Origin: a virus
Taxonomy: Duplodnaviria; Caudoviricetes
Length of the DNA: 64,000 bases
Strand: one strand, 5' to 3'
Virus record (IMG/VR): IMGVR_UViG_3300010340_000989
Coordinates: 64,001 to 128,000 of that record
The notes beneath the pieces were generated by a model, which did not search any database, had not been told where the DNA came from, and saw only the letters and a program-made list of their open reading frames with translations. The translations under genes were made by a program, and so were the position numbers. Shown piece by piece: positions 12,617 through 45,674 of the stretch (position 1 is its first letter; each line of letters begins with the position of its first letter).

Positions 12617-13360
12617 TTATTTTAGTATTTTGTAAATTTCTGTAAGAGGCAATCTAGGTAAGTCAGTAGATTTTTTATACTTAGTAAGAATATAAAATTT
12701 ATTTTCCGATTCTAAATATCCAACATCCATTATTATATCACCACACAATACTTTTAAAAGATCATCTGAAATAGAAATAGGGATAATATCTAAATCTTTA
12801 GGTTCTTCAAAGTTTGAAATTTCTCTAACAAAATTGAAATTCTCTTTCTTATAAAATTCTTGCTTTAAAAGTTGTAAAAACTTTGATTTAATTTGCATAA
12901 CTTCATTTTTTCTAACCCCGAAAACATCTTTCCATTTAAATCCCAATGTGATGTGCATATCATGTTCTGATAATTTATACCTATCCCTTATAGCTTGTAA
13001 TTTATCTGATTTACCTACAACAAAATATGTAGTATTCTCATTTTTAGATGCTGTCCCCAATCCTAACAATTGTAAATCATCAATAGCATAACTAAATATT
13101 GATTGCAACGAATTAATAAAATTACTAATTCCCATTTCTTTTGAGAGTTTATTATAATCCATAACATTAATGACAGTCATGTGATAACCACCATCATTAT
13201 GATCTCTCTTTTGTTGATTATCAGTATAGATTTTATAATCCTCTTCTGATAAGACTTCTTTTAATTTGTTTAAGAATGGTTCAACGGTATTATGATCAAA
13301 TTTAATCCCTAAATAATTATTACCAATTGCATCCTTTAAATATGTTAAGTAAAATATCAT
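12617..13360 (-). CDS. 2H phosphoesterase (putative 2',3'-cyclic phosphodiesterase)
   Basis: Two HxT motifs: YHMTVI and HITLGF. Confidence 0.8.
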   Translation of the reverse strand: MIFYLTYLKDAIGNNYLGIKFDHNTVEPFLNKLKEVLSEEDYKIYTDNQQKRDHNDGGYHMTVINVMDYNKLSKEMGISNFINSLQSIFSYAIDDLQLLGLGTASKNENTTYFVVGKSDKLQAIRDRYKLSEHDMHITLGFKWKDVFGVRKNEVMQIKSKFLQLLKQEFYKKENFNFVREISNFEEPKDLDIIPISISDDLLKVLCGDIIMDVGYLESENKFYILTKYKKSTDLPRLPLTEIYKILK

Positions 13361-13389
13361 TAATTTTATATTTTTGATTATATATAAAA

Positions 13390-13965
13390 TTATTTTAATA
13401 AAGTTACTGATCCATATTTAATAAAATAACTAGAATTTATTTTACATATTATTTTATAAACATATAAATCATCTTGAACCATTCTTCCCTTATAAGTTCC
13501 ATCCCATCCATAATCCGGATCATTTGATATAAATATACGTTCTCCCCATTTATTAAATATTTCTAATACAAAATCTTTAGAATCTACTTTTCCAAGTATT
13601 TTAAATGTATCATTTATATTATCACCATTAGGAGTAAAAGCAGAAGGTATCCAAATTAATTCACAAGGTTTAGATTCAATTATTACTTTTCTAACATCTC
13701 CTTGACATCCATATTGATTAAACTCAACAACACTTAATACAAAATTCATATTTGTATCTGGGAATAAAACTGTCACTTTATTATTATCCTGGGATAATAT
13801 TGTACCATTATTCAAATCCCACTTATAAGTAGAACCATCATTAAAATCGACATAGAATTTTTGTATCCTATCAACAGAATCACAGTTATTATAACTGATT
13901 GTTTGTGATTTAAGATTAAAATTAAATGAAAAAAGAAGGAATAGGGTCACTATCAATTTCATCAC
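13390..13965 (-). CDS. secreted PKD/Ig-like protein with T9SS type-B CTD
   Basis: Signal peptide; GSTYKW; IPSAFTPNGDNINDTF...IFNKWGE...GWDGTYKG...YVYKI...GSVTLLK. Confidence 0.85.
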   Translation of the reverse strand: MMKLIVTLFLLFSFNFNLKSQTISYNNCDSVDRIQKFYVDFNDGSTYKWDLNNGTILSQDNNKVTVLFPDTNMNFVLSVVEFNQYGCQGDVRKVIIESKPCELIWIPSAFTPNGDNINDTFKILGKVDSKDFVLEIFNKWGERIFISNDPDYGWDGTYKGRMVQDDLYVYKIICKINSSYFIKYGSVTLLK

Positions 13966-14013
13966 TTTACCTAATATTTTATGTATATATTACTAGGTAA
14001 ATCAATAAAAATA

Positions 14014-14616
14014 CTATTGCTTGTAAATTGGTGAAGTAATTGGGGTTGGGTTTACAATTATATTATAAGTTGCCACACCAGAACATCCATTTGGATCATT
14101 ATAAGTATATGTTACTGTTTGAGAACCAACTGATGGATTAAAAGTATTACCTACTACACCAACACCTGAAAATATACCACCTGAAGGATTACCAACTAAA
14201 TTTACTATTGGATCACCAGCACAAAATGGACCAATTGCATTTATTGTCACATTTGGACCAGAAACAACATCTATTAAACAATTGACTGGTAACCCAACAC
14301 AACCTTGAGCATTTGTCTCTGTAACTTGTAAAGTATATGAACCCACAACAGAACCCCAATTGATTATTACCAATGCTGATCCTTGACCTGATGCAATTGT
14401 TCCACCACCAGATAGTGTCCAGTTATATGTTGATCCTGGAGTATTGATTACAAAGTAATCTTGATTTTGAGAGTTTATACATACAACATCTGGACAAACT
14501 TGTGTTTGTGAAAACACAGTAGAAGATATTAAAACGAATAATAATAATAAAAGTTTTTTCATAAAAAAGAGGTTTAATTTTCCAATTATATATTGAAAAA
14601 TCAAACCTCCTTCCAA
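14014..14616 (-). CDS. secreted PKD/Ig-like repeat protein (probable start MKKLLLL)
   Basis: Signal peptide; GSTYNW, GGIFSG.GV.GNTFNP, VTYTY.D.NGC. Confidence 0.75.
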   Translation of the reverse strand: MEGGLIFQYIIGKLNLFFMKKLLLLLFVLISSTVFSQTQVCPDVVCINSQNQDYFVINTPGSTYNWTLSGGGTIASGQGSALVIINWGSVVGSYTLQVTETNAQGCVGLPVNCLIDVVSGPNVTINAIGPFCAGDPIVNLVGNPSGGIFSGVGVVGNTFNPSVGSQTVTYTYNDPNGCSGVATYNIIVNPTPITSPIYKQ

Positions 14617-14623
14617 AATTAAA

Positions 14624-14872
14624 TTATTTTTCTGTCATTTCTATAAGTTCTAAAATTCTATCCTTATCTAATTCACACTGTTTAGCAGTTTTTATAATAA
14701 TTTCTTTACCACTTTCTGTTGATAAAAGTTTTTCAAAATTATCTTTATCTGAAATTAATTTAGATAAAGTCCAAAAAGCACCTAATTTATTTCTAAGCTT
14801 ATCCTGTACAGACTCTGTGGAAAAGTCATTATCGTGTTCGTTTTCTATCGATTCTGTAAATTTCTTAATCAT
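14624..14872 (-). CDS. hypothetical protein with N-terminal leader
   Basis: MIKKFTES. Confidence 0.6.
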   Translation of the reverse strand: MIKKFTESIENEHDNDFSTESVQDKLRNKLGAFWTLSKLISDKDNFEKLLSTESGKEIIIKTAKQCELDKDRILELIEMTEK

Positions 14873-16062
14873 AACATTTGTTTAAATTTTTCTATTTCCA
14901 ATCTCTTGATTTCATCACCTAAAGCTTTATTTTTTTTAAAACCTTTAGATATCAAATCTTCGGAAGATACACTAGGAATATAGTCAATAAATCTAATAAA
15001 AATCTTATCATGAACTCCACAAGTATCCAACCAATCAATAATTTGATCAACTTCACAATGACATCTTACTTTTTTCTTATATAAATCAAGAGCATTCTCT
15101 GGTGTTAATTTTAACAAATCTAATAGAAATACAACTTTAGGAGCAGTATCATACTTATCCGCAATTTTATATGATTGTACCATTTTAGTCTTAAGATTTT
15201 TAGTATCTTCAAACTTAAATAAGTTAGCAATATATGATGTTAATTTATGAGCCTCTTCAATATTAGTATTGATTTTAGAACCTGGAAATACTTGTTCCCA
15301 CATATCAAATTCATTAAAAAATTCAAGATATTGTTTGTAGGATTTAGCTTGTTTAAAAGCTTTCAACATTTCTTCCCATATTCTTTCTTGAGAAACATCA
15401 TCTTTCGGACCAATTCCTTTAAGTCGATTATCTTTTTTAATAGCATCAGCTGTTTTATCTTCAATTTTACCACCTGTTCTAGCAGCAAATCTAAAAACTC
15501 TTAAAATTCTAAGTCTATCTTCAATAAATCTTTGACTAGCGTCACCAACAGCTCTAATTATACCATTTTTGATATCATCAACACCACCTACTAAATCAAT
15601 AATTTGTTTCTTTTTAATATCATAGAACAAAGCATTAATAGTTAAGTCTCTTCTATTACAATCATCTTCTATTGTAACATTATCTCCCATTTCCACTTTC
15701 TGATCATCACCTTTTGTATCTCTTCCACCTGAGATATCCTTTCTATATGACGCAATCTCATATCCAGTTGGTTCATCTTTGGTAAAAACCCTCAATACTC
15801 CAAAGTTTTTACCTTGTTCATCAGATACATTAAACCCCTTCAATATCTCTTTAGATTCGTTTGGTAAGGCATTTGTCACTAAATCATAATCTTTAGGAGA
15901 AATTCCTTTCACAAAATCTCTAACAGCACCACCTACTAAGAAAATATCTTTACCAGCCTTTATATAAGCATTAGATATTTCTATAATATCATTTGGTAAA
16001 GGAATATCAGTAGATATTCTATTTTTAAGGCTTTCACAGAAGAGTTTGTATCTAGTTATCAT
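14869..16062 (-). CDS. cca: class II tRNA nucleotidyltransferase (CCA-adding/poly(A) polymerase family)
   Basis: VGGAVRD...DYD, RRDLTINAL, RFIEDRLRILR..RFAAR, SQERIWEE; ATG start at 16062 gives MITRYKLFCES. Confidence 0.9.
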   Translation of the reverse strand: MITRYKLFCESLKNRISTDIPLPNDIIEISNAYIKAGKDIFLVGGAVRDFVKGISPKDYDLVTNALPNESKEILKGFNVSDEQGKNFGVLRVFTKDEPTGYEIASYRKDISGGRDTKGDDQKVEMGDNVTIEDDCNRRDLTINALFYDIKKKQIIDLVGGVDDIKNGIIRAVGDASQRFIEDRLRILRVFRFAARTGGKIEDKTADAIKKDNRLKGIGPKDDVSQERIWEEMLKAFKQAKSYKQYLEFFNEFDMWEQVFPGSKINTNIEEAHKLTSYIANLFKFEDTKNLKTKMVQSYKIADKYDTAPKVVFLLDLLKLTPENALDLYKKKVRCHCEVDQIIDWLDTCGVHDKIFIRFIDYIPSVSSEDLISKGFKKNKALGDEIKRLEIEKFKQML

Positions 16063-16081
16063 AATGTAAATATACAAAAAA

Positions 16082-16867
16082 TTAACGAATCAATATATGA
16101 GATGCTGGAATTTTTCTCAAATCAGTAACTATACGATCCTGACTAATTCCGTAATCACTGTATATTTCTAATCCTTGAATAATTTCTTTTTCAACTAACT
16201 CATATAGATTTGAATTATCAGTTGAAGACTTATTCAAATCTGAATTCTCATCAAAAATATCCATAAATATTTTCTTCAATTGCTGTCTAGTTTTCATACC
16301 TGAAATTTGAACCTCGGCTACCGAATCATCATAACTATCTAGTTGGATTTTTGAGAAACTGGTTTTACCATTGACCACGGTATAATCGACGCTAAACCAA
16401 AATCCCCAGAAAAATCCGTTATAAAAATCTAAATCTTCAAAATTATCTGAAATATTTTTGATATCATCTTCACTAGTCGGGATCAACCCAACAGAGAATC
16501 GTATTGAAATTGTCCTATTATCTTGTTCTTCATCATGCCAGAATTCCTGCAAATCTGTAAATTCTGGACATATTTCTAAGTAAAACTCAACATTTCCACC
16601 TCTATATGAGTCTTCAGAACCAGGTGAATAGAGATCAAATCTAAATGTTCCAAATTTAGAATATTTATCTACTTTTCTTTTCCATTTATCCATCGATTCT
16701 CTCATTTCCATATCACCAGCATGAGATTTTAATTTATCAGCTCTTTCGGCAGCATTAATACTTCTAGCTAATCTTGGATCATCTTTTACTATTTTTTGTA
16801 GTTTTCTAGAGGCTCTCATATATGTTGAAGAGTTGAGTTCTTCGTTAAATCTTTTTAAATGTTTCAT
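16082..16867 (-). CDS. hypothetical protein with N-terminal leader (putative internal virion protein)
   Basis: MKHLKRFNEEL; N-terminus similar to 16883..17680. Confidence 0.75.
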   Translation of the reverse strand: MKHLKRFNEELNSSTYMRASRKLQKIVKDDPRLARSINAAERADKLKSHAGDMEMRESMDKWKRKVDKYSKFGTFRFDLYSPGSEDSYRGGNVEFYLEICPEFTDLQEFWHDEEQDNRTISIRFSVGLIPTSEDDIKNISDNFEDLDFYNGFFWGFWFSVDYTVVNGKTSFSKIQLDSYDDSVAEVQISGMKTRQQLKKIFMDIFDENSDLNKSSTDNSNLYELVEKEIIQGLEIYSDYGISQDRIVTDLRKIPASHILIR

Positions 16868-16882
16868 TTTAAATAATTTTTT

Positions 16883-17680
16883 TTAGTGGGAAATCCTTTT
16901 GAAGGCTTCTTTAGGATCTTCATTATATAATTTATTAGTATTAATATTTTTAAATTCATCTAATATCATCTCTACATCTGATATTTCAATTGTAGATATT
17001 ATATTAGGAAGAATTTCAAACATAGCTTCTGAATTAGTCATATATTTATCATCGTCTTCATTTTTATATCCAGTATAAACTTTTATTTCATTAGTTAATA
17101 CTTTTCTAAGAATATTTCTAAAATTATTAGCAGATTTTCTATCACTAAACATAGTGCCAAGCTCACCATAAGTAAAAATCGTTATCGGAGAAACTCTATC
17201 TATATTACCATTCTCATTTAGATTAAAATGTGTATGTAATTCCATTGGCCAAAACTTATAAGAACTAAGTTCGCATTCATCTTTAAATAAATCTATATAT
17301 TCTGGTTTAATTTTAGATAACTCTGATTCATTTATTTCAAACGAAATAGTAATAGATACTGGTAAAATATTAGTACTTTTATGATATTCAATATCATCTT
17401 TTAACAAATCCAGATTAAGTTCAATCTTGTTAAGTTTAGCTTTTATTGGAGTATCAGAAATAATGCCACTTGTTATTCCTTTTCTTGATGTTGCTGTTGC
17501 TGGGTAAGAAGTCATCCATTTAATCCAAATATTGAATTCACCAACATCACCAAGCTTACCTTTCTTAGCCCAGTCAATTAGTTTTTGTCCCCTTTCAAGA
17601 TGTCCTACCTTTTTAAGATTATCACCAGCATTTATATAAGTTTCTATATTAAGTTCTTCAAATTTTTTTAAGTGCCTCAT
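16883..17680 (-). CDS. hypothetical protein with N-terminal leader
   Basis: MRHLKKFEELN..TY..A...L. Confidence 0.75.
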   Translation of the reverse strand: MRHLKKFEELNIETYINAGDNLKKVGHLERGQKLIDWAKKGKLGDVGEFNIWIKWMTSYPATATSRKGITSGIISDTPIKAKLNKIELNLDLLKDDIEYHKSTNILPVSITISFEINESELSKIKPEYIDLFKDECELSSYKFWPMELHTHFNLNENGNIDRVSPITIFTYGELGTMFSDRKSANNFRNILRKVLTNEIKVYTGYKNEDDDKYMTNSEAMFEILPNIISTIEISDVEMILDEFKNINTNKLYNEDPKEAFKRISH

Positions 17681-17696
17681 TGTTTATAAAATTGAA

Positions 17697-17714
17697 TTTT
17701 AATATATATTAAAA
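17697..17714. promoter_or_regulatory. 18-bp perfect palindrome carrying TAATATATA on both strands; candidate bidirectional late promoter
   Basis: ttttaatatatattaaaa between divergent leader-bearing operons. Confidence 0.55.
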
Positions 17715-17953
17715 TGAGATACTTGAAATTTTTTGAAGCATTTAAATATAAAAACTTTACTCTACAAGACATAATAGATTGTATTCAAAGTAAAGGATTT
17801 ATTTATGCAACTATTATTAATAATTTACCTGATAATGATCCAGATATGGCAATTAACCCAATGAGTGTAGATGATGACGGTTTAATTACGGTTGAAATTG
17901 ATGGAAAAGAATATGAAGTTGAATTAAAAAATGTTGAAAAAATAGAATTTTAA
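17714..17953 (+). CDS. hypothetical protein with N-terminal leader
   Basis: MRYLKFFEA. Confidence 0.7.
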   Translation: MRYLKFFEAFKYKNFTLQDIIDCIQSKGFIYATIINNLPDNDPDMAINPMSVDDDGLITVEIDGKEYEVELKNVEKIEF

Positions 17954-18429
17954 TGATTAAAAGTTGGGAATTGTTTTTAGAATCAAATAACAGGGATCAA
18001 GAAATACTTGATAATATTAGGGATATTCTTATATCTCTTAAAGTAGATCATTCTATTAGAGTTTTAATAAGAAGCTATGTAGAAGAGTTTGGTAAAGTTA
18101 TGGTTTCTTTTATAATAGAAGGAAAAATTGGAATAGAAGAAGTTCAAACTATATTACACTTGGATAGTTATTTAAAAAGCGAAGAGTTTGATCCTAAGGC
18201 AAAATCTAATAAGATAAATGAATTAGATGTTGTTGTTCAAAGAAAAAGTGGGAAACTTGATCAGTATTCTATTAGCAAATTGCTAACAATGCTAAACGGT
18301 GTAAATAAAGATGTTATTGACTTGACTAGAATTGAGTTTCAATACTATCTACCAGATTATCTTAGATATTATAATGATAAAAACGGAAATATTTTTAAAA
18401 TTGGAGATTTGATTATTTATTTACATTGA
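17953..18429 (+). CDS. paralog-family protein with N-terminal leader
   Basis: MIKSWELFLES-NNRDQEILDNIRDIL; near-duplicate of 18470. Confidence 0.75.
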   Translation: MIKSWELFLESNNRDQEILDNIRDILISLKVDHSIRVLIRSYVEEFGKVMVSFIIEGKIGIEEVQTILHLDSYLKSEEFDPKAKSNKINELDVVVQRKSGKLDQYSISKLLTMLNGVNKDVIDLTRIEFQYYLPDYLRYYNDKNGNIFKIGDLIIYLH

Positions 18430-18469
18430 GAACTATATTAAAAAATAGCAAGCAAACAATAACTGAATT

Positions 18470-18994
18470 ATGATTAAGGACTGGAAATTATTTTTAGAAT
18501 CAAATAACAGAGATCAAGAAATACTTGATAATATTAGGGATATTTTGTTGTCCTTAAATGATAGTTGTGACCTTATAAGAGTCTATATACCATCTTTTAT
18601 AGAAGAATTTGGCAGAGTTAAGGTTCATTTTATAATAGAAGGTAAAATAGGAATAGAAGAAATTCAAGTAATAAAACATTTAAATTCATATTTAGAAAGT
18701 GAAGAATTTAAATGTTCAATACCTAGAAGAGGAACAGATAATAGATTTAACCAGGCAGACTGGTTTAAAGAATTGAATGTTATTGTTCAAAGAAGAGAAG
18801 GTGGTGTATATAAATATTCTCTTAATGAAATAATAAGATTATTAAATATGGAAAATTCCATATTTAATAAAAAACCAGTATATAATTTAGTAAGAATTGA
18901 TTTTGCGTACTATGTACCAGATTATCTTAATGATGGAAATATTTTCCAAATTGGACAAGGAAAAGATTTAATAAGAAATAATATATATGGTTAA
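18470..18994 (+). CDS. paralog-family protein with N-terminal leader
   Basis: MIKDWKLFLES-NNRDQEILDNIRDIL. Confidence 0.75.
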   Translation: MIKDWKLFLESNNRDQEILDNIRDILLSLNDSCDLIRVYIPSFIEEFGRVKVHFIIEGKIGIEEIQVIKHLNSYLESEEFKCSIPRRGTDNRFNQADWFKELNVIVQRREGGVYKYSLNEIIRLLNMENSIFNKKPVYNLVRIDFAYYVPDYLNDGNIFQIGQGKDLIRNNIYG

Positions 18995-19475
18995 GAACTG
19001 GAAGTTATTTTTAGAAGCATTCGATCCATTCGAAGGAGATCCATTTAGAGAAGAAATTCTAAATAATGTTAATGATATATTATCTGGATTAAAAGATAAT
19101 GGATTTTATATTGATATCGTCTATGGATTTTCTTTCACTATAAATAATAAACTCTTAATTAACATAAAAGGTAAGGAATTTCCGTTTAGACCGGATGGTA
19201 TTGAATCATTATTTATATCATCAGATGATTTTCAATCAATAATACACTTAAACAACTATTTAATAAGTGAGGAGTTTGAACCTATTTCAAATAATATACT
19301 TAAAGAATTAGATATTAAATTTAACACATTTAAATCGGACAATCTAAACTCTGAAATGAAGAGAATGTCTTATCCAATTAGTAGATTGGAATATTCTTTA
19401 AAGAAAAATGGTATGAAAATTAATTTCATATATTTTGAATACATCCTACCAAAATTTGCTAAATTATTCAGATAA
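18987..19475 (+). CDS. paralog-family protein with N-terminal leader
   Basis: MVKNWKLFLEA; EILNNVNDIL; HLNNYLISEEF. Confidence 0.75.
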   Translation: MVKNWKLFLEAFDPFEGDPFREEILNNVNDILSGLKDNGFYIDIVYGFSFTINNKLLINIKGKEFPFRPDGIESLFISSDDFQSIIHLNNYLISEEFEPISNNILKELDIKFNTFKSDNLNSEMKRMSYPISRLEYSLKKNGMKINFIYFEYILPKFAKLFR

Positions 19476-19491
19476 AAATATATTCAATTAA

Positions 19492-20244
19492 ATGATAGAT
19501 AGATTTAAAAACTTTCTAAAAAGAAAAAATAAAAATGAATTCGACTCTAAATCCACAAAGGATATTATAAACGATATAGTAACACCCTTAGAGGATATTA
19601 ATGGTGTTACTATTAACATATCACAAGGTAATGTGATTCAAAGTGATTCAAAATTATTTTTAGTTAAATATAATTTTCACTTAACAAGTGATGTAGATTT
19701 GGAAGAATTTAAAAATGAAATATTAAATTGTAAATCACATATTGAATCAGAGGATCTAGTTATGTATTTATCAATTTCAACAAGGAAAAATGGGAAAAAT
19801 ATCAGTTATGCTGGAAGAATAAATATTTATACAAATGATAGTTTCAAAAATTACAGACTTCAATCATATAATTTTCAAAATATTATTAATTTCCTAAATT
19901 TCTTGAAAATAAGTAATGATATATTTAGTAATATTAAAAATAAATACTCTATCGAAAACCATATAAGTGGTCTCGATGATATGATATATGTTCAAATAAC
20001 TAAAGGAATTAGAGACGGTGTGGAAATTCCATATAATTTTATAGAAATTAAAGATAATGTGCTAACTTTTTTAGATATGATAAAAAAACATAATTTAATA
20101 TTTAGATTAGCTTTCGTATCCGAAAATAACACAGGTGGGTTTTCTTCTGAAGAACCATCATATGATGATATAAAGAATGGATTATATGATAAAAGACAAG
20201 TAAGTATATTAACAATATACGAACAAACCATTTTAACCTCATAG
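19492..20244 (+). CDS. hypothetical protein, distant member of the DIL.DL.D family
   Basis: DIINDIVTPLED; SHIESEDL. Confidence 0.65.
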   Translation: MIDRFKNFLKRKNKNEFDSKSTKDIINDIVTPLEDINGVTINISQGNVIQSDSKLFLVKYNFHLTSDVDLEEFKNEILNCKSHIESEDLVMYLSISTRKNGKNISYAGRINIYTNDSFKNYRLQSYNFQNIINFLNFLKISNDIFSNIKNKYSIENHISGLDDMIYVQITKGIRDGVEIPYNFIEIKDNVLTFLDMIKKHNLIFRLAFVSENNTGGFSSEEPSYDDIKNGLYDKRQVSILTIYEQTILTS

Positions 20245-20250
20245 AAAATA

Positions 20251-20281
20251 AAAAACCCCAGTTAAAGTAACTGGGGTTTTT
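20251..20281. terminator. bidirectional intrinsic terminator
   Basis: aaaaaccccagtta-aag-taactggggttttt. Confidence 0.85.
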
Positions 20282-20282
20282 C

Positions 20283-20351
20283 TTAGTGTGTATTTTCTAT
20301 ACAAATTTGTTTTATCTTATTATTAGTTCTACCAAGAACCCGACCTTTCAT
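20283..20351 (-). pseudogene. duplicated 3' end of the VWA gene (mini-ORF MKGRVLGRTNNKIKQICIENTH)
   Basis: Matches the C-terminus of 22014..23591 (KGRVL[IISVGTKVPI]GRTNNKVKQICIENTH) with a 10-codon deletion. Confidence 0.85.
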
Positions 20352-20355
20352 TTTA

Positions 20356-20994: not shown

Positions 20995-21025
20995 AAAAGG
21001 AAGGACAGATTTTAATATATAGAAT

Positions 21026-23640: not shown

Positions 23641-23641
23641 A

Positions 23642-29027: not shown

Positions 29028-29430
29028 TTTCTAATATTTTACTAATTAAATAGTCTCTCGACCAACTTTTATCATCAAAGATAAATCCACTATACAATCC
29101 TGAAATTAAATAACCATCAATTGTAAGAAGACCACCTCTTCTTTGCAAAGATATGAATTTTTTCTTAATTTTCCAATTTTGAGACAATATTTGAAGGAAT
29201 CGATCCTTAAAAGGTATTAGATAATAAGTAGGTAACTCATTAGAATGTCTACGCTCATCTGGATCGATTCTATATCTAACCTTTATTCTTAAAGTATCAA
29301 TTATTCTAATTGAACCCTCATGAGCAGCAAATATAGGAACTTTATAGTCTATTTGTATTTTATAATCAGATAGTTTTCTGATTCTAAACCGACCATCCTC
29401 GTTTTTCAATTCTTCTATAATTGGGTTCAT
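29008..29430 (-). CDS. hypothetical protein with near-C-terminal tag
   Basis: RDYLISKILE. Confidence 0.6.
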   Translation of the reverse strand: MNPIIEELKNEDGRFRIRKLSDYKIQIDYKVPIFAAHEGSIRIIDTLRIKVRYRIDPDERRHSNELPTYYLIPFKDRFLQILSQNWKIKKKFISLQRRGGLLTIDGYLISGLYSGFIFDDKSWSRDYLISKILENESGDN

Positions 29431-29938
29431 CTTTTATTTTCTGTAAGTATGAGATTAGTTTAAGTAATTCAGTATCATCTGAATCATCTGTAAATTCCTT
29501 TATTAAAATTAAGTTACCATAGTTATTAACAGCGGTTTCTTTTTTATCATCAATTATTAAAATATTATTTAAATCATATCCACTCTTCTTCAATTTATTA
29601 AGATTTTTTATGCCATAGTAATCCGAGTAATCGTAACTAAGTTTGATAGTACATTTATCTTTTGTATAAAAGAACTTTAATGATGATTCTAATATTCCGA
29701 TGTTTTTTATAATTTCTTTTGCGTAATCTTCTCCTGCTGCAGTCCAGATTGCAACATCAAAATTTTCATAAGCAAAATCTAAAAACTGATCAAGATAAGG
29801 ACGTTTTTTAGTATAATATAAAGATTTTCCATTTCCTTTAAACTTAAAATCATAATCATACTTATCTGCATATTCATCTGGAACATTTTCAGTATGGATT
29901 AGAGTTTCATCAATATCAAGAATTAAAAGAGGTTTCAT
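29384..29938 (-). CDS. HAD phosphatase, FCP1/NIF family
   Basis: LILDIDETLIH, KRPYL..FL, IWTA, IIDD, D.ELL.L. Confidence 0.9.
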   Translation of the reverse strand: MKPLLILDIDETLIHTENVPDEYADKYDYDFKFKGNGKSLYYTKKRPYLDQFLDFAYENFDVAIWTAAGEDYAKEIIKNIGILESSLKFFYTKDKCTIKLSYDYSDYYGIKNLNKLKKSGYDLNNILIIDDKKETAVNNYGNLILIKEFTDDSDDTELLKLISYLQKIKDEPNYRRIEKRGWSV

Positions 29939-37310: not shown

Positions 37311-37390
37311 AATCTATATATTAAAGTCTATATCTACAAATAAAAACTAAATTTAATTTGAAGACTATAACAATAAAATAAAAATATCTA

Positions 37391-38359
37391 ATGGTATTAA
37401 ATTGCATAATTGACGGAAATTATATACTTTCAAGATTAGTATTCACACTACATAAAAATAATCTATTATATGGTGCGCTTACACAATCATTAGAAAATAC
37501 TATAACAAACTACAAAAAACTATATCCATTTTCAAATGTCTATTTGGTTTCGGATTCAAAAGAAAAATCTTGGAGAAAATCTTTAAATTCTAATTACAAA
37601 GCTAATCGTAAGAAAGATTCAGATATTGACTGGGCTTTTGTTTATAAAGCTTATGATGAATTTAAACAGAATTTAAAAGGAACAAAATTACTTGAATCAC
37701 CTACTATTGAAGGTGATGATTGGATATCATTTTTAGTTCAAAAAACTAATGATATGAATCAATCTAATTTTATTGTCTCAAATGATCATGATATTAAACA
37801 ACTTATAAAATTCAATCTCGATTCTGAGTGGATTAATTTTATGAGTAATGAAATGTATAATCAAGAAAAGATTTTTCTACCAAAAAATTATCAAATTTTT
37901 TTAAATAAAATTAGCCAAAAAAATAATAATGACATTTTTGATCTAAATGATAATAGTGAGTTTTTATCATTAATGAATCGATTTGTAAATAGATATCAAC
38001 TATCTGAGATTTCTAATTTAGAATCATTATTGATTAAAATTATTTCTGGAGATACTAGTGATAATATACAATCTGTATATCAGACAAATAAATCTGGTAA
38101 AGTTAGAGGAATAGGACCGAAAGGTGCTTATTCTATCTATGAATCATATATTTCAGAATTTGGAGACCCATCTTTACAGGATCCAGACCTTTTTGAAAAT
38201 ATTGCTGATTTAATTTGTGAAAAGAAAAAGATTTCTAAAACAAACATTGAAAATATAGTGGGTAGAATTCAAGATAATATGAAATTAATTGATTTAAGAA
38301 TTGACAACTTTCCGGATGAAATTGTCAATACCATGATAAAAGTTTATAATAATATTTGA
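37391..38359 (+). CDS. 5'-3' exonuclease / T4 RNase H-like flap endonuclease
   Basis: IDGN, SWRK...YKANR, EGDD, SNDHD..QL, GDTSDNI, GIG.K, N..LIDL. Confidence 0.88.
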   Translation: MVLNCIIDGNYILSRLVFTLHKNNLLYGALTQSLENTITNYKKLYPFSNVYLVSDSKEKSWRKSLNSNYKANRKKDSDIDWAFVYKAYDEFKQNLKGTKLLESPTIEGDDWISFLVQKTNDMNQSNFIVSNDHDIKQLIKFNLDSEWINFMSNEMYNQEKIFLPKNYQIFLNKISQKNNNDIFDLNDNSEFLSLMNRFVNRYQLSEISNLESLLIKIISGDTSDNIQSVYQTNKSGKVRGIGPKGAYSIYESYISEFGDPSLQDPDLFENIADLICEKKKISKTNIENIVGRIQDNMKLIDLRIDNFPDEIVNTMIKVYNNI

Positions 38360-38360
38360 T

Positions 38361-38750
38361 ATGGCTGAACTCATAGATGTTGCGAATGCTATGTTTAGAA
38401 ACAAGAAAAATTGGAAAAATATAACCGATTTAGATAAAGAAAAGTACTTTTTTATCTTTAATCGATATTTTTCCAAAAAATATCCAACAAAGTCACAAAT
38501 ATTGAATAATAAGAATATAGATAAAAGTAGTGCCTTAGATTTATGGTATTATTTTATGTTGGATAAAGGATATCCTGATTGGTTTTGGTCTAAGAGTCCA
38601 AAATTTGAAAAATCCGATATATCAGATATCGATTTTAAATTACTTTTTCTTAAACTAGGACTTAATAAAGAACAAGATTTAATATATTTATTAGAGAAAT
38701 ATCCAGATATTATTCAAGAAGAATTGAAATTTTATAAAACAAAAAAATAA
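38361..38750 (+). CDS. hypothetical protein, possibly clamp-loader small subunit (gp62-like)
   Basis: F..NRYFS...W pattern and replication-gene context; weak. Confidence 0.35.
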   Translation: MAELIDVANAMFRNKKNWKNITDLDKEKYFFIFNRYFSKKYPTKSQILNNKNIDKSSALDLWYYFMLDKGYPDWFWSKSPKFEKSDISDIDFKLLFLKLGLNKEQDLIYLLEKYPDIIQEELKFYKTKK

Positions 38751-38753
38751 ATT

Positions 38754-39293
38754 ATGGCAGAATCAAAGCAATGGTACGCAATTAGAACACAAAATAATAG
38801 AGAAAAAAGTGTTTTAGAAAAACTTAATCTTGAATTATCAAGATCAGGATTGACAGATATAATGGGAAGACATATTATTCCAACCGAAAAAGTCTATAGT
38901 GTTAAAAATGGGAAAAGAATTGCTAAAGAAAAAATTCTTTATCCAGGATATATTTTTATTGAAATTTCACATATAGGTGAAATTAATAATTTTTTAAAAG
39001 GAATTAATGGATCAGCAGGGTTTGTAAGAACTAAAAGTGGTGATATAAATCCTCTTAAAGAATTTGAAGTAAAAAGAATGTTAAAGGATCAGGAAAGTAA
39101 TGATAATATTATTACTTATGGTAATTTGTTTTCAGTTGGTGAAGAAATTAAAGTCATTGATGGAGCTTTTACCACATTCAAAGGTAGTGTAAAAAGTATT
39201 GACGAGGATAAGAAAAAAATTAAAGTTGAAGTCTTAATTTTTAGTAGACCAACAATGGTTGAATTAGATTTTCTTCAAGTAGAAAGGGTATAA
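38754..39293 (+). CDS. nusG: transcription termination/antitermination factor NusG
   Basis: WYAIRT...E, LYPGYIFIE, GFV, PL..EV; KOW GEEIKVIDGAF..F.G, V.IFSRPT.VELDF.QVE. Confidence 0.92.
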   Translation: MAESKQWYAIRTQNNREKSVLEKLNLELSRSGLTDIMGRHIIPTEKVYSVKNGKRIAKEKILYPGYIFIEISHIGEINNFLKGINGSAGFVRTKSGDINPLKEFEVKRMLKDQESNDNIITYGNLFSVGEEIKVIDGAFTTFKGSVKSIDEDKKKIKVEVLIFSRPTMVELDFLQVERV

Positions 39294-39295
39294 AT

Positions 39296-40051
39296 ATGGG
39301 AAGTTTTGGAAATGTAATTCCAAAAGAAAGAAAAATATATGGAAACTGGCAAGTAAAATCACCAGAAGGAATTCTTATGTTTCGTTGTGGTGAAAAAAAA
39401 GCTATGTGGTATGTTAAGCGTGATTTAGGTGAGATAGTTCAAGATAATCCAAAAATTGTTCAACTAAAATTTCAACCTAATGGTCTCGGGAATCACCAAA
39501 AAAAGTATGGTTTAACAGAAATGTTAAACAAATGTGTTGTCTGTGGTACAGATGAATACTTAACCAGACATCACGTTGTTCCATATTGCTATCGAAAATT
39601 CTTTCCAGAATCAATAAAGTCTCATAATTTTCACGATGTTCTTTCACTTTGTATTGATTGTCATGAAAATTATGAAAAAAAAGCAACTGATTTTAAAATA
39701 AAATTATCTGAAATTTATAATGCACCAATTAATGGAGACTTATTTGATAATAAAGACTTAATAAAAGTTAGAAAGTTAGCTAGTTGCTTAGTTAATAATA
39801 TACATCAAATGCCTAAGTATAGAATCACTGAAGTTAAAAATGAAATTAAAACATATTTTGGTTTAAAAAGACTTCATATAAAAAGACTTGAGAATTTAAT
39901 GAACATAGAGTTTAAGATTATAAATAGAACACACGGTGAATTAGTTGTTAATAAAATTGATAATATCGATAGTTTTATGAAATCTTGGAGAAAACATTTC
40001 ATAGAAAATAATGAATGTAAATATTTACCAAAAAACTGGTCAGTAGAATGA
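39296..40051 (+). CDS. HNH-like protein resembling the C-terminal domain of eukaryotic EXD2
   Basis: KKAMWY, L.F.P.G, N.CVVCG, HHVVP..YRK.FP...KSHN.HDVL.LC..CH, HG..VV, WRKHF...KYLP..WSV. Confidence 0.8.
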   Translation: MGSFGNVIPKERKIYGNWQVKSPEGILMFRCGEKKAMWYVKRDLGEIVQDNPKIVQLKFQPNGLGNHQKKYGLTEMLNKCVVCGTDEYLTRHHVVPYCYRKFFPESIKSHNFHDVLSLCIDCHENYEKKATDFKIKLSEIYNAPINGDLFDNKDLIKVRKLASCLVNNIHQMPKYRITEVKNEIKTYFGLKRLHIKRLENLMNIEFKIINRTHGELVVNKIDNIDSFMKSWRKHFIENNECKYLPKNWSVE

Positions 40052-40662
40052 GAATGAGAGAAACGGATAAAAAAATTTTAGATAAAATAACTAAAGCATC
40101 TAATATAATTGCTTTAAAATCTAGAGGATCCGGTGCTAGTTGGATTATCGCTTCTGCAAAATTGACAGCAAAATTTGATGAAGTATTTAATAATAGTAAA
40201 ATCAGAGAAGAACGAGATAAAAAAATAAACGACTTATTAAGTATGAGTGATAAACAATTAAGATATGATATTACATATTTAGAAATGGCTAAAACTTGGT
40301 CAAACTTATCACACTGTGATAGAAAAAAAGTAGGAGCTTTAATAGTTAAAAACGGGATGATTATTTCTGATGGGTATAATGGTACACCATCTGGATATGA
40401 TAATTGTTGCGAAAATGACAATTGGGAAACACATTGGTATACTATACACGCCGAATCAAATGCGATTTTAAAATGTGCTAGATGGGGTCATTCTTGTGAA
40501 GGTGCTACTTTGTATTTAACTCACTCACCTTGTAAGGATTGTTCAAAATCCATATTGCAATCTGGAATAAAAAGGGTTGTATATGCTGAAAATTATAAAG
40601 ACCTTGAGGGTGTAGAATTTTTAATAAATTCTGGAGTTCAAGTAGAAAAAATAACAATTTAA
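40048..40662 (+). CDS. dCMP deaminase (core from ATG 40243) with a 65-aa N-terminal extension
   Basis: S.C.RKKVGALIVK, GYNGTPSG, HAESNAI, SPCKDC. Confidence 0.9.
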   Translation: MRMRETDKKILDKITKASNIIALKSRGSGASWIIASAKLTAKFDEVFNNSKIREERDKKINDLLSMSDKQLRYDITYLEMAKTWSNLSHCDRKKVGALIVKNGMIISDGYNGTPSGYDNCCENDNWETHWYTIHAESNAILKCARWGHSCEGATLYLTHSPCKDCSKSILQSGIKRVVYAENYKDLEGVEFLINSGVQVEKITI

Positions 40663-40663
40663 A

Positions 40664-41143
40664 ATGAAATTTGATGTCAGTTTATTTTCACAATTAGAGA
40701 AAAAAGAATTTCAGGCACATTTTAATAGTGAACTTGATATTTCATCAATGAAGCTATTCTATGATAACTGCATCAGAATGGGTGGGGATAGTAATAGTAA
40801 TATTCAGATAGCAACTATACATCCAGATATTTGGTTCGGAGATCATTTTGAGCTTTTAAATAGTAAAATAAAAATGGTTGTTGAATCACCAGTTTTTCAA
40901 TTAGTTAGAATTGAGGGTGGTCAATTAGTTTGTCAAAACTATTCATCAGATCAAATTACTTTTTCAACAGATCAAGATTTAATTAATTTTTTTGAACATA
41001 TGTCTGAATTTGGTTCTTTAGCAGTTTTTAGTCTTGTTAAATACTTAGATGTTAGAACTCTACAATCTTATTGGAACTTAAGATATAAAGATATATCTAC
41101 AAAAGAAGAGATAAGAGATAAAAAGATTAGTTCTATTATTTAA
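40664..41143 (+). CDS. hypothetical protein with C-terminal RxxK tag
   Basis: Ends RDKKISSII. Confidence 0.7.
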   Translation: MKFDVSLFSQLEKKEFQAHFNSELDISSMKLFYDNCIRMGGDSNSNIQIATIHPDIWFGDHFELLNSKIKMVVESPVFQLVRIEGGQLVCQNYSSDQITFSTDQDLINFFEHMSEFGSLAVFSLVKYLDVRTLQSYWNLRYKDISTKEEIRDKKISSII

Positions 41144-41251
41144 TATATAAATCAATTAAAATCTAATCAAGTGTTTTTGATTTGTGAGTGAGAGGTTAGG
41201 TTTCAAAACTTAAAAAAATTATGGACTCTGAGAGTTGTTATAAAAGCGAAA

Positions 41252-41515
41252 ATGAAGGAGATAAACAGAAAGAAGCTGGCGACACTATTCCTACTTTTAG
41301 GAATGTTTTTTTCACCTCTAGGCTTCGACGCAGTTCAGTATATTCTAATAAAATTGACCGGTTCCTTATTTGGTGCGAATTTGGCGTTATATTGCCTTGC
41401 GGCATTTTGCTTTGGACTCTACTTTATATTTTCGGGATATAATCCCATTTCAGAAGTTCGAAATATAGTTTTGAGTATTTATAATGATAAAATAAAACAT
41501 TATTTCAAGAGGTAG
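41252..41515 (+). CDS. small membrane protein (2 TM)
   Basis: Two hydrophobic segments. Confidence 0.6.
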   Translation: MKEINRKKLATLFLLLGMFFSPLGFDAVQYILIKLTGSLFGANLALYCLAAFCFGLYFIFSGYNPISEVRNIVLSIYNDKIKHYFKR

Positions 41516-42299
41516 TTTCACATCTTAAATCTAAGATTTTAATATACAACTCATTATTTTCATCAATTTTATCAGATTTTATTATATTATCTTTTGACCA
41601 CATAGGTCTTAGATTGGAATAGTGACTTAACATTATTATTTCTTTTTCATTTTTTGCAAAAGATATTGGGATTATATGATCAACATGCCACAATTCTCTT
41701 TTTTCCCAACTCATTCCGTCTAAAAATTGAGATTCTATATATGTTCTTAATTCAGAAGCGCTGCATCCAACTATTTCATACCATTGACTATTAGTGCTGA
41801 ATTTTTTCATTATCCTTTTTGATTTAAGTATTCTTCTTATACCACCACTTATTCTATTTTTTATTAAATATAAAGGATCGTTTTTAAGAACATCCTTTTT
41901 ATATCTTTTAGCTCTTTGATTTATTTTTTCTCTGTTATTTTTTGAGTATTCACTATTTCTCTTTTTAATTTCTTCTTTATTTAATTCATATCTGATTTTA
42001 GATTTTTGTGACTCAGATTCTTTTTTCTCTGAATATCTTTTTTTCAAATATTCTTTCTGACAAATAAAACATATTCTTTTACTTTTAACAAAGTCCTCGA
42101 CTAACTTTTCGTTATTACAAACCCTACACACCTTAGTGGTTTTAGGTTCTAATTTATATGGATTATCTTTATTACCTTTCCTATATTCCCTCAAATATAA
42201 AATTCTACATCTTTTACAATCATTTCGATAATTTCCTTCTTTTCTAATTGAAAATTCAGACAATTTTTTTTCTATTTTACATATATTACAAGTTTTCAT
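41505..42299 (-). mobile_element. free-standing HNH-like endonuclease with CxxC repeats
   Basis: K.C..C...K...F twice; GMSWE...WHVDHIIP...HYSNLRPMW..DN..KS. Confidence 0.8.
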
Positions 42300-42370
42300 A
42301 TTTTATATATTAAATCCATTTGGGTTCGTTATAAAAATGTTTTTCAATTAAGAATCTTAATATATAAGAA

Positions 42371-42940
42371 ATGAAAGTAATTAAATTTATTGATTTTATA
42401 AACGAGAATTTACACGACACACCAGAGGAATATATTAAAATTGCTCTAAGTAAATTAAAAAAGAAAATTGAATCTTTTTTTGAGGTTGCTAAACCAGAAG
42501 GTGAAGAAGAGGAAAAGTTTATAACTATGAGTGATGCCTTGAAAAAAGGAAAAGAAGAAGAAAAGAAAAAATCTGAAATATCTTTTGCAGAGTTAGGTTT
42601 AAAGTTAGAAAGCTCAGAATTAAGTAAATATTCATCTTTAAATGATAGTATTAAATTTATAATGTCTGATGAAGATTTTAGATATGATTTAACAATTATA
42701 ATTCCATTAGATGAGGCAAAAGTAACAGACACTGATAAAGATTTTACAGACACTGATATTAAAAAATGTTATATTAAATTTAAAAAATATGACATGAAAA
42801 ATAATGTTGAATTAATTGGTCAAATTAATAAAAATGTGGAAATAAGTTCAATAGATGAAAATCTTTTAATTGATCTTAAAATTCAATTAGATGATGAATA
42901 TGGTGATGGTGATGAAAAATTAGAAATAGAAACTGAATAG
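42371..42940 (+). CDS. acidic hypothetical protein with N-terminal leader
   Basis: MKVIKFIDFINE; TAATATATA at 42358-42366. Confidence 0.75.
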   Translation: MKVIKFIDFINENLHDTPEEYIKIALSKLKKKIESFFEVAKPEGEEEEKFITMSDALKKGKEEEKKKSEISFAELGLKLESSELSKYSSLNDSIKFIMSDEDFRYDLTIIIPLDEAKVTDTDKDFTDTDIKKCYIKFKKYDMKNNVELIGQINKNVEISSIDENLLIDLKIQLDDEYGDGDEKLEIETE

Positions 42941-42968
42941 GAAACATATTCACTCTAATAAATAGAGT

Positions 42969-43466
42969 ATGTATAATATTGTAACTAAACCATCAATAAT
43001 CAACGAGATTAAAAAGTCAAAATATTATAGACAAAGTCTCGGACTAGTAACAACCATAGAACATAATGGTCAAAGACGATATAACGAGAAAGATAAATTC
43101 AGCTTTTTCTATAACACAACATATAAAACAAATATTCAAATGCAGGGTAATCTTGGAGACATTGTTGTCTATTTAGATTACTATATTCAGGAAGAAGTTT
43201 TGGCATTATATTATAATCAAGAAGAATTTGTATTTAATTTTGACCCTAATATGATCAAAGAAAAAGGTATAGAATTCTATCTAGGACACCTTTTAAAAAC
43301 TGTCGAAACTCAATATGAGGAAAGAATTAAAGCAGCTGAAGAAAAGAAGATTGAAGTGAAAAAAGAAGGAAATGCTGATATTTTAAAAGAAAATCCAGGG
43401 ATGGTATCTTATGAAGATCTTAAAGCGTATTTAGCTGAGAAAGCTAAAAATAGATATACTAGTTGA
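42969..43466 (+). CDS. hypothetical protein
   Basis: ORF track. Confidence 0.7.
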   Translation: MYNIVTKPSIINEIKKSKYYRQSLGLVTTIEHNGQRRYNEKDKFSFFYNTTYKTNIQMQGNLGDIVVYLDYYIQEEVLALYYNQEEFVFNFDPNMIKEKGIEFYLGHLLKTVETQYEERIKAAEEKKIEVKKEGNADILKENPGMVSYEDLKAYLAEKAKNRYTS

Positions 43467-43704
43467 GAAAATTTCTCACAAGAAAATAATATATTTCTTT
43501 TTTAGTCTCATCATCAAAATCATCAAAATCAAATTGATAATCTAAATCATCAACAATTTTGTGAAGATAGATCTTATCTTTATCTTTTCTCCATTCAATT
43601 GTATTGAATAATAAACCATTAACCAGTTGAATATCTATAACAACTTCGAATAAATCTATCGCAAGCCACTTAACTATTGGTATAATACTGATTTTATAAT
43701 TCAT
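43459..43704 (-). CDS. hypothetical protein
   Basis: TAATATATA at 43709-43717 (-). Confidence 0.6.
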   Translation of the reverse strand: MNYKISIIPIVKWLAIDLFEVVIDIQLVNGLLFNTIEWRKDKDKIYLHKIVDDLDYQFDFDDFDDETKKEIYYFLVRNFLN

Positions 43705-43783
43705 ATATTATATATTAATGATAGGACTTAAATAAGATCACAATGCTTATTTATTTTAAAATTTATTTATAATATATAAAATA

Positions 43784-44425
43784 ATGAAAAAGATAACAGA
43801 AGAATTATTAAAAGACGCATTTATTGATTTGATTGATAATGGATGGCTTTTAAGGCTTAATAAAACCATTTATGTTGTTCATAAAGATGGGAATGGTGAA
43901 TCCGGAAATACAATCTCACAAGCTTTGAAAAGTTTTACAAATACTAATAAAGCGGAAGAAGCAAAATGTAATAAATTAATTACAATATCTATCAATAAAC
44001 CTAATAATGATATTTTAAATTTTAGAGAATATAAAGAATTTCAACAAGATTTTTTAGGATCGTTATCTAGCTTCTGTGATGAAATTGAAGTTGATGAAGA
44101 TAAAGTCACTGTCGAAAATGGATTTGGAAGCGAACAAACAATTACAATTATTCAAGATGAATTTAATATTAAAAATATTGTAAAATTTACTAATATTTGT
44201 AGAATATTTAATATTAAATTTAATGGTAAAATTTCTATCGGATTATATGATGATGGTATTAAATTAAATATGCCTAGTGATGTAAAAGGAATAGCAACAA
44301 ACGGATGGTATCAGTTTAAAAGAGAAGCATTGGAAATGATTAGTAAAGATTTTGATATAATTGAAAAAGATTTTTCCTTATATTTGCATCCAAAATTTGA
44401 ATTCATAGAAAATGAAAATATTTAA
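43784..44425 (+). CDS. hypothetical protein, DIL.DL.D family-like
   Basis: LLKDAFIDLIDNGW; TAATATATA at 43770-43778. Confidence 0.7.
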   Translation: MKKITEELLKDAFIDLIDNGWLLRLNKTIYVVHKDGNGESGNTISQALKSFTNTNKAEEAKCNKLITISINKPNNDILNFREYKEFQQDFLGSLSSFCDEIEVDEDKVTVENGFGSEQTITIIQDEFNIKNIVKFTNICRIFNIKFNGKISIGLYDDGIKLNMPSDVKGIATNGWYQFKREALEMISKDFDIIEKDFSLYLHPKFEFIENENI

Positions 44426-45674
44426 CTACTTACAATTTATCACAGAATCTAACGATTTATCAACACATTATCTTCCATCTTATGAAGATTGTTTGGAAAT
44501 GTGCACAAAAGAAGAATCTGCTTTCTATGAGTCAAAATTTACTATTGATGGTTATAACATCTCAGTATTTAACTATCGTCTCGCTCAATATAAAGACTTT
44601 GTAACACCTTTAGAAAATAGACCAGAAGTCAAAGCATACGAAATGAGAGGATTGACATTTGTATTTAATGAAGATGGTTCATTATTTAAGAGATTTTTAT
44701 TGCTTGAAAAGTTTTTCAACATTAATCAAGTTCCAGAATCCATGTATTCTATTGTCAAGGATTACAAAATTAAATTTGTCAATAATAAAGAAGATGGCTC
44801 TATTGCTTCTTATATAAAATTACCCAATGGTAAAATATTAGGTAAATCCAAAATGGGATTTGATAACGAACAAGCCAATGGTATAAATAGAATTTATAGA
44901 ACTAGAAAAGATATAAAAATATTTGTTGATTGGTGTTTGGATAATGATATTACATCTATTTTTGAGTATGTATCACCAGCAAATCGTATTGTTCTAAGAT
45001 ATTTAGAAGAAGATCTTATTCTTTTAAGAATGAGAGATAATAGAACTGGTAAACACCTAAACATCAAAGACTATTTAGATAAAATTGATACTATCAGAAT
45101 CGCACCATTTGAAGATGATAACAAAGATTTAGACTCTTTGGTGGAAGTTATTGCTAAAGAAGTTGATAAAGAAGGCGTTATTGTTCAAACAGAAGATAAA
45201 TATGGTAGAGACTTTTTCTTTAAAATTAAAACTCCTTGGTACTGTGAACGTCACGGTCTATTGACTAATGATATTTATAGAGAACATATCATAATTGGTT
45301 ATATCTTAGATGATAAAATTGATGATATTCTTGGACAAATACCAGAAGATGAAAAAGAAGCACACTTGAGAATAAATAAAATTATTCAAATTGTTAAAAA
45401 AGTAATTGATGAAAAAGTTGCTGATATTAAAAAATCATATCAAGTTTATCTAGATATGGGTTCTAATAATAAAGAATATTCTTTGAAGTATTATAGAAAA
45501 GAGCCAAACTTTTCTTATGTAATGGGTGTTGCTAAAGGTATGGATATTTACGAATTGGCTAAAGATTGGCTAAGAGATAATACTAAAAGATTAATGTTAG
45601 CTAGAGATTTTTTAAAGAAAAAAGATCCAAGTCTTTTCTTCCAAGAACCAAATGAGGAAAATTTAGATTCATAA
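44412..45674 (+). CDS. RNA ligase, T4 Rnl1 family
   Basis: FNY, EMRGLTF, EKFFN, motif I KEDGS, FEYVSP.NRIV..Y, EGVIV, KIKT.WY..RH. Confidence 0.9.
   Translation: MKIFNYLQFITESNDLSTHYLPSYEDCLEMCTKEESAFYESKFTIDGYNISVFNYRLAQYKDFVTPLENRPEVKAYEMRGLTFVFNEDGSLFKRFLLLEKFFNINQVPESMYSIVKDYKIKFVNNKEDGSIASYIKLPNGKILGKSKMGFDNEQANGINRIYRTRKDIKIFVDWCLDNDITSIFEYVSPANRIVLRYLEEDLILLRMRDNRTGKHLNIKDYLDKIDTIRIAPFEDDNKDLDSLVEVIAKEVDKEGVIVQTEDKYGRDFFFKIKTPWYCERHGLLTNDIYREHIIIGYILDDKIDDILGQIPEDEKEAHLRINKIIQIVKKVIDEKVADIKKSYQVYLDMGSNNKEYSLKYYRKEPNFSYVMGVAKGMDIYELAKDWLRDNTKRLMLARDFLKKKDPSLFFQEPNEENLDS

Follow-up and report, generated by a model that had tools for sequence, protein, structure and literature searches.

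A shared leader peptide on an RNA ligase and a CCA-family enzyme of a huge-phage contig and its likeness to the T4 capsid-targeting sequence

Introduction

In this study, we analyzed a window of 64,000 nucleotides (bases 64001-128000) of one IMG/VR viral contig (164,996 bp, linear, 27.5% G+C) with regard to an Rnl1-family RNA ligase and a nucleotidyltransferase of the CCA-adding/poly(A) polymerase family, both of which begin with a short leader peptide that starts about 15% of this phage's proteins. A sequence-only reading of the window had grouped these two enzymes with a 2H phosphoesterase and a DxDxT HAD phosphatase as a dispersed tRNA/RNA repair kit, and had proposed that the ligase and the CCA enzyme are tagged for delivery with the virion. 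All four genes are present at the coordinates given below and their motifs are intact. Coordinates refer to the window unless the contig or another record is named.

Source of the contig and leader model

The CheckV completeness of the contig is 52%. Its nearest records are LR745206 and LR756502, two circularised uncultured phages of 635 kb and 642 kb, and LR756504 (636 kb) and LR756501 (735 kb) are more distant relatives. These four are the largest genomes of Al-Shayeb et al. 2020, belong to the Mahaphage clade and are predicted to replicate in Bacteroidetes (PMC7162821). Homologs in LR745206 were found for 115 of the 242 crude open reading frames (ORFs) of the contig; since they are mostly syntenic with the 421-548-kb region of LR745206, the contig is probably about a quarter (165 kb of ~640 kb) of a Mahaphage-clade huge-phage genome of Bacteroidota. 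A match to PF07068 Gp23 on the contig, with 18 bits and within a small ORF, was taken as spurious.

For the detection of leaders, a hidden Markov model (HMM) was built from 32 N-termini of the contig, from which those of the Rnl1 and CCA-family proteins were held out. Internal windows starting with Met served as background.

The tagged RNA ligase and CCA-family enzyme

The gene at 44412-45674 (+ strand) encodes a protein of 420 amino acids (aa), which by its Pfam, PHROG and PDB matches is a member of the Rnl1 (T4 RnlA) family PF09511 (RNA_lig_T4_1; E 5e-19, 69.5 bits against a curated cut-off of 28.3) with a predicted RNA-end sealing activity. It also matches phrog_562 (E 6e-56) and the structure of T4 Rnl1 (PDB 2c5u; E 3e-25). 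The motifs K126-EDG (with the adenylylation lysine), FEYV, E254-GVI (motif IV) and K271-I-K273 (motif V) are intact, and K126, E254, K271 and K273 are invariant in two alignments, A1 and A2. An identical Rnl1 is present on the 480-kb metagenomic contig P0001. The leader comprises residues 1-12, MKIFNYLQFITE (nt 44412-44447), and is followed by a variable linker (residues 13-23) and by the core from about residue 24, at which the PHROG profile also begins. Alignment A1 contains leader and variable linker in the three closest Rnl1 proteins, whereas the proteins of LR756504, LR756501 and the T4-like phage Moon are leaderless and start straight at the conserved IPSYEE segment. E12 does not vary among the 43 diverse orthologs of A2, and the conservation of Y6 and F9 is 90% or higher, while the linker residues 13-21 have no conserved column. 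From 120 metagenomic orthologs with at least 70% identity, 101 reached at least 7 bits with the leader HMM, and most of the remaining ones visibly retain the leader motif; in a few proteins (e.g. P0055, P0063, P0092, P0106) the start is truncated or shortened or has no leader. In an AlphaFold2 model (pLDDT 70), residues 2-13 are predicted as a helix and residues 14-23 as a coil before the core, with a pLDDT below 50 in this part.

The second tagged enzyme (14869-16062, - strand; 397 aa) is a class II nucleotidyltransferase of the Pol-beta type according to Pfam, PHROG and its motifs. It matches the PF01743 PolyA_pol head (E 1e-29, 103.5 bits) and phrog_2244, which is named tRNA nucleotidyltransferase (E 8e-59) and whose profile begins at residue 38, and it carries the motifs GGAVRD44, D58-Y-D60, RRD137 and EDRLR181 (motif D). 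Because E. coli poly(A) polymerase outscores CCA enzymes as solved relative (120 versus 98 bits), 'CCA-family' is the safe name, and the CCA activity is a prediction. The leader (residues 1-10, MITRYKLFCE, in the start MITRYKLFCES; nt 16062-16033) was assigned by alignment A3 and the leader HMM. An alternative TTG lies upstream at 16077; the orthologs start at the ATG (16062). In 120 metagenomic orthologs the leader is mostly stronger than in the window, which holds a weaker variant: the median score was 17 bits, 115 orthologs reached at least 7 bits and 111 at least 10 bits, and the consensus is MKIKRYNQFINE/NK, where the slash marks the end of the leader here and below.

The sequence-only reading had staked its proposal on the leaders not being ordinary residues of the catalytic core. 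The alignments bear this out: residue 6 of T4 Rnl1 corresponds to residue 24 of the phage ligase, and residue 17 of Bacillus CCA to residue 35 of the phage CCA enzyme, so that the leaders lie outside the catalytic folds, with an offset of about 18 residues in both enzymes. They are genuine, portable and selected add-ons. In line with this, the Rnl1 ortholog and the nearest CCA homolog of LR756504 are leaderless, although at least 55 other proteins of that genome are tagged; the CCA homolog, with only 31% identity, may not be an ortholog.

The leader class

In general, the leader reads basic-aromatic/hydrophobic-x-x-F-(I/L)-x-E, with S, N or A as the next residue. With the leader HMM, 115 of 917 N-termini of LR745206 (12.5%) scored at least 10 bits, compared to 4 of 3036 internal windows (0.1%), and in LR756504 this held for 55 of 909 N-termini versus 0 of 2645 internal windows. 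The likeness of the two enzymes to the leader, which had been noticed by eye, proved to be beyond chance: the held-out start of Rnl1 scored 11.0 bits, matched by 4 of 3823 internal windows (0.10%), and that of the CCA enzyme 7.5 bits, matched by 10 of 3823 (0.26%). Within residues 7-15, 75% of leaders and 10% of other N-termini have a Glu with S, N, A or G right behind it, and 67% of leaders have F, I or L at position P3. Synonymous codons are used alike in leaders and gene bodies (e.g. TTT 81% versus 75%, GAA 78% versus 79%), so that the leader peptide and not the mRNA is under selection.

Regarding the proteins that carry it, Pfam assigned no family to 18 of 20 large leader proteins of LR745206; the remaining two are a fusion of a 2H and an RNase_T domain and a DHH-like protein, and none is a housekeeping enzyme. 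The DHH-like protein (LR745206 105634-107625, 663 aa) has weak matches to DHH phosphoesterase and winged-helix domains and is a further possible tagged nucleotide or nucleic-acid enzyme.

Upstream of the genes, the motif T[AT]ATATATA was found for 47 of 115 leader genes and 107 of 802 other genes of LR745206. It has two spacings and ends either about 4-7 nt before the ATG, as expected for near-leaderless mRNAs, or about 20-31 nt before it; the latter spacing is that of the head protease, the major head protein and large structural-type genes. Ten untagged carriers comprised one head-decoration protein, one DnaB-like helicase and eight proteins without assignment. Because the DnaB-like helicase carries it as well, the motif was not used as a sign of late expression.

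Other candidate RNA-repair enzymes

The gene at 12617-13360 (- strand) encodes a 2H-SAK phosphoesterase of 247 aa (PF22547; E 3e-20, 73 bits) with two HxT motifs, HMTV60 and HITL136, which is a candidate 2',3'-cyclic phosphodiesterase and has no leader. A LigT-type 2H protein of 179 aa on the contig (129814-130353, 1.8 kb past the window end) is tagged with MMKTYLEFIKE/S; it contains HLTL57 and HITL136 and matches PF13563 (35 bits) and, weakly, Acb1. Its ortholog in LR745206 (448257-449573), with a leader of 19 bits, is the protein fused to an RNase_T exonuclease. Possible substrates of the tagged LigT-type 2H are RNA ends with a cyclic phosphate or cyclic oligonucleotides that serve as defence signals. 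Thus, three RNA enzymes of the contig carry the leader: Rnl1, the CCA enzyme and, beyond the window, the LigT-like 2H. The contig also encodes a second, untagged RNA ligase (12620-13261, contig coordinates; PF09414, E 1.5e-27), which is 77% identical to a gene of LR745206 located 5 kb from the Rnl1 of that genome.

The DxDxT HAD phosphatase (29384-29938, - strand; 184 aa, no leader), by contrast, fits poorly into the proposed kit. With its DIDET motif it belongs to the NIF/FCP1-like, i.e. protein phosphatase-like, family PF03031 (E 5e-36, 124 bits); no HAD_PNKP match and no kinase domain were found with Pfam and no match with PHROG, and its neighbours are genes for a membrane protein and a topoisomerase. 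It is probably not part of the RNA-repair set. A separate HAD protein of 122 aa (contig 14527-14895) has only a sub-threshold HAD_PNKP match (18 bits).

The statement that no polynucleotide kinase is visible in the window can be extended, as a T4-type Pnk was found neither on the contig nor in the four complete relatives by a protein search of low sensitivity. Looking beyond the window for pnk and tRNAs, as had been advised, yielded both a kinase candidate and tRNA genes in sister genomes and neither of them on the contig: the contig, like the window, is devoid of tRNA genes, while LR745206, LR756502 and LR756504 each encode a kinase-only protein (161-162 aa, from an open frame of 166-167 aa) that matches AAA_33 with 66-74 bits. 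The copy in LR745206, which is leaderless and adjoins tRNA genes, additionally matches phrog_505 'polynucleotide kinase'. A CoaE-family kinase of the contig (582-1160, contig coordinates) was not called a polynucleotide kinase, as its CoaE match is full-length. Tpt1/KptA (PF01885) was not found in the five records searched, i.e. the contig and the four complete relatives. What is left of the kit is a set of RNA-end enzymes, probably without the FCP1/NIF-type phosphatase and only partly tagged. Such RNA-end maintenance enzymes are usual for jumbo phages, and gene sets of this type have already been described (PMC7824862).

Neighboring genes

Rnl1 is preceded by a 213-aa ORF without assigned family (43784-44425, + strand), which overlaps the ligase start by 14 nt and is probably co-transcribed with it. 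The sequence ATAATATATA (43766-43775), a copy of the promoter-like motif T[AT]ATATATA, is located 8 nt ahead of its ATG. No homolog was found in LR745206 at E 1e-8, and the ORF was rejected as a candidate healing enzyme, as neither a Pfam or PHROG family nor a P-loop was found for it. Directly downstream of Rnl1 lies an ORF for a putative phage DnaK (45818-47683, + strand; 83% identical to the LR745206 copy), and 3 kb beyond it a DnaJ-like ORF (50921-51955, + strand); both identities were assigned from translations and synteny, with no family search. A connection of these chaperones with the basic-hydrophobic leaders is conceivable.

On the other side of the window, an 82-aa ORF (14624-14872, - strand) overlaps the CCA stop by 4 nt and starts with the weakly leader-like MIKKFTESIENE. 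Between the CCA and 2H-SAK genes, two signal-peptide proteins are encoded (13390-13965 and 14014-14616, - strand). The C-terminal segment of the former, IPSAFTPNGDNINDTF, is one which we take to be typical of the C-terminal domain of Bacteroidota gliding/type IX secretion proteins, and on this assumption would fit the predicted host phylum Bacteroidota. In LR745206, a same-strand row (516201-519970) contains the CCA enzyme, a 319-aa leader protein, the 2H-SAK protein, a small acidic protein and a CoaE-family P-loop kinase; on the contig, the kinase of this family sits elsewhere, as given above.

Likeness to the capsid-targeting sequence of phage T4

In T4, propeptides of 10-20 residues load proteins into the prohead, gp21 and its homologs of giant phages cut after Glu, and the internal proteins are diverse anti-defence cargo with only the capsid-targeting sequence (CTS) in common (PMC3012670, PMC5694885). 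In the T4 record, the internal proteins IPII and IPIII start with MKTYQEFIAE/A and IPI with MKTFKEF. When 252 crude T4 ORFs were scored with the leader HMM built from the huge-phage contig, the top four were IPIII (11.6 bits), gp61.1 (11.4), IPII (10.7) and IPI (9.6). The leader ends of both enzymes, I-T-E/S in Rnl1 and F-C-E/S in the CCA enzyme, fit a cleavage site composed of hydrophobic-x-Glu and a small residue. A suitable protease is indicated in the relatives: a 707-aa protein of LR745206, whose gene adjoins that of the major head protein, matches phrog_207 'head maturation protease' (E 2.6e-30), the PHROG to which T4 gp21 belongs as well (E 8e-73), and sub-threshold PF03420 matches are located at the corresponding gene in all four complete relatives. 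Judged by sequence, the leader is equivalent to the CTS of the T4 internal proteins.

The 54-aa hypothetical protein gp61.1 of T4 (NC_000866 18966-19130) starts with MKTFKEFIKED and may, from this start, be an unrecognised CTS-bearing head protein.

Virion delivery of the leader-tagged Rnl1 and CCA enzyme is the best-supported reading of these data, to which we assign an even chance. According to it, the leader would dock the two enzymes into the assembling prohead, where the head protease would cut it off behind the conserved Glu (E12 in Rnl1, E10 in the CCA enzyme). The mature enzymes would exit together with the DNA and be active ahead of all phage translation, either by resealing and re-tailing tRNAs damaged by host nucleases or by priming the phage's own CCA-less tRNAs. 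For PrrC-type breaks the packaged set would be incomplete, because none of the tagged proteins is a kinase for 5'-OH ends. The wider proposal, that Mahaphage-type phages pack more than 100 proteins by a T4-like peptide, and that these include an injected RNA set (Rnl1, CCA enzyme, LigT/Acb1-like 2H) which protects translation before expression starts, is tentative, its prospects lying somewhat below even.

Several points weigh against delivery in the virion. About 115-137 tagged proteins per genome would be far above the number of cargo species known for any characterised phage. Short leaders such as MKYLKRFE/S do not fit the hydrophobic-x-Glu rule of T4 at P3. The head module with protease and capsid genes was not found on the contig, which is incomplete, and the upstream motif precedes a DnaB-like helicase besides head genes. 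The 2H-SAK protein and the kinase candidate of the sister genomes are both untagged. Finally, the AlphaFold2 model of Rnl1 is only moderate, and the picture of a detached helix drawn from it is weak.

Alternative explanations

It is extremely unlikely that both N-termini are chance resemblances or ordinary first helices of the enzymes. The weak score of the CCA leader in the window would allow for it, but scores equal to those of the two proteins occur in only 0.1-0.3% of internal windows, the orthologs carry canonical leaders, and according to A1-A3 the residues in question precede residue 1 of T4 Rnl1 and of the bacterial CCA cores. Very unlikely, too, is that the shared start matters as nucleotide sequence rather than as peptide, for instance as a signal by which near-leaderless mRNAs initiate translation. 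T[AT]ATATATA ends 4-7 nt before the ATG in 38 of the 66 motif-bearing leader genes, as such a signal might; the codon use of the leaders, however, equals that of gene bodies, the Rnl1 gene keeps its leader despite overlapping the preceding gene, and the conserved positions, Y6, F9 and E12, are separated by residues that vary.

Two further explanations accept the leader as a peptide. The leader could be a real sorting or handling tag with an address other than the capsid, e.g. a handle for DnaK/DnaJ, a docking peptide for a different assembly or compartment, or a signal for degradation or timing, with the enzymes acting only inside the infected cell. The very large number of tagged proteins would suit such a tag, as would the phage DnaK gene directly behind Rnl1 and the DnaJ-like ORF nearby, and basic-hydrophobic starts resemble Hsp70-binding peptides. 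We nevertheless regard it as unlikely, as the leader model singles out the CTS-bearing internal proteins in T4, and as the conserved Glu with its small neighbour suits the needs of a gp21-family protease, a family that is present in the relatives. A different question is what the enzymes do. They may serve the phage's own translation apparatus rather than repair after host defence, the CCA enzyme completing phage tRNAs and the ligases and 2H proteins maintaining the pool. A full CCA is encoded in 0 of 59 tRNA genes of LR745206 and 1 of 38 of LR756504, and 57 of the 59 LR745206 genes encode just the discriminator base and a C; a phage CCA enzyme is thus expected on maturation grounds alone. CCA enzymes are, moreover, common in tRNA-rich jumbo phages (PMC7824862; PMC7162821). 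The host, on the other hand, should already own a CCA enzyme, maturation requires no tag, and Rnl1 has no known role in bacterial tRNA maturation, its characterised role in phages being the repair of anticodon-nuclease breaks (PMC7824862). Service to phage translation is nearly an even prospect, and it is compatible with packaging.

Regarding the tRNA genes themselves, 48 of the 59 in LR745206 read N-C-A-A, and in nearly all phage tRNA genes the lone C is followed by A or T. C74 is conserved far beyond the ~15% that base composition predicts and may serve as a signal for 3' processing.

If the wider proposal holds, Rnl1, the CCA enzyme and the LigT-like 2H would be the first RNA repair enzymes known as virion cargo, within by far the largest known injected proteome. 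Defences that cleave tRNAs and block translation strike before a phage can make proteins, and finished repair enzymes entering with the DNA would bypass them; counter-defence by injected proteins would thereby extend beyond inhibitors such as T4 IPI*. With the leader, injected proteins of uncultured phages could also be predicted by a simple rule on their sequence, and a set of natural leaders is at hand.

Comparison with known systems

The jumbo-phage RNA repair sets of Iyer et al. 2021 are alike in their dispersed Rnl1/Rnl2 ligases, kinases, 2H and HAD proteins, CCA enzyme and many tRNAs (PMC7824862). Compared to the T4 Rnl1 and Pnkp pathway, which counters PrrC, the ligase described here has all nucleotidyl-transfer motifs and is 31-32% identical to Rnl1 of T4-like phages over residues 24-314. 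It differs by its leader, which T4 Rnl1 does not have, and by its partners: no Pnkp was found on the contig or in the four relatives, the sister genomes having only the 161-aa kinase-only AAA_33/phrog_505 protein, and 2H enzymes stand in place of the DxDxT 3'-phosphatase of T4. The 2H enzymes recall the chemistry of fungal Trl1, from which the set differs in that no Tpt1 was found in these records.

With respect to virion cargo, Iyer et al. 2017 predicted 2H domains as such in polyvalent proteins and stated that the 2H domains of this type were never seen with RNA ligases (PMC5512222). Unlike in the polyvalent proteins described there, the tag here is carried by separate single-enzyme genes and not by a fused polyprotein. 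The searched passages of PMC7824862 and PMC5512222 contain no description of RNA ligases or CCA enzymes as capsid cargo. T4 Alt, the virion RNA polymerases of N4 and phiKZ and P1 Dar are enzymes which are produced late, packed into the head and functional as soon as they enter the cell, and in these features they resemble what is proposed here; their loading signals and activities are others, none of them being an RNA ligase or a tRNA nucleotidyltransferase.

The closest counterpart is the CTS of T4 IPI-III. T4 tags a handful of small proteins, whereas these phages tag more than 100 per genome, including enzymes of 20-75 kDa; the protease domain here heads a 700-aa protein, and many leaders have the shorter form MK(Y/H)LKxFE. 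In both cases, a short N-terminal peptide ending in Glu and a small residue (MKTYQEFIAE/A in T4; MKSYKQFINE/S, MKIFNYLQFITE/S and MITRYKLFCE/S here) is placed on otherwise unrelated proteins, with a gp21-family protease, here in the sister genomes, and with anti-defence cargo in T4. These likenesses suggest that the head-loading peptide of T4 is ancient; the largest known phages appear to employ it very extensively.

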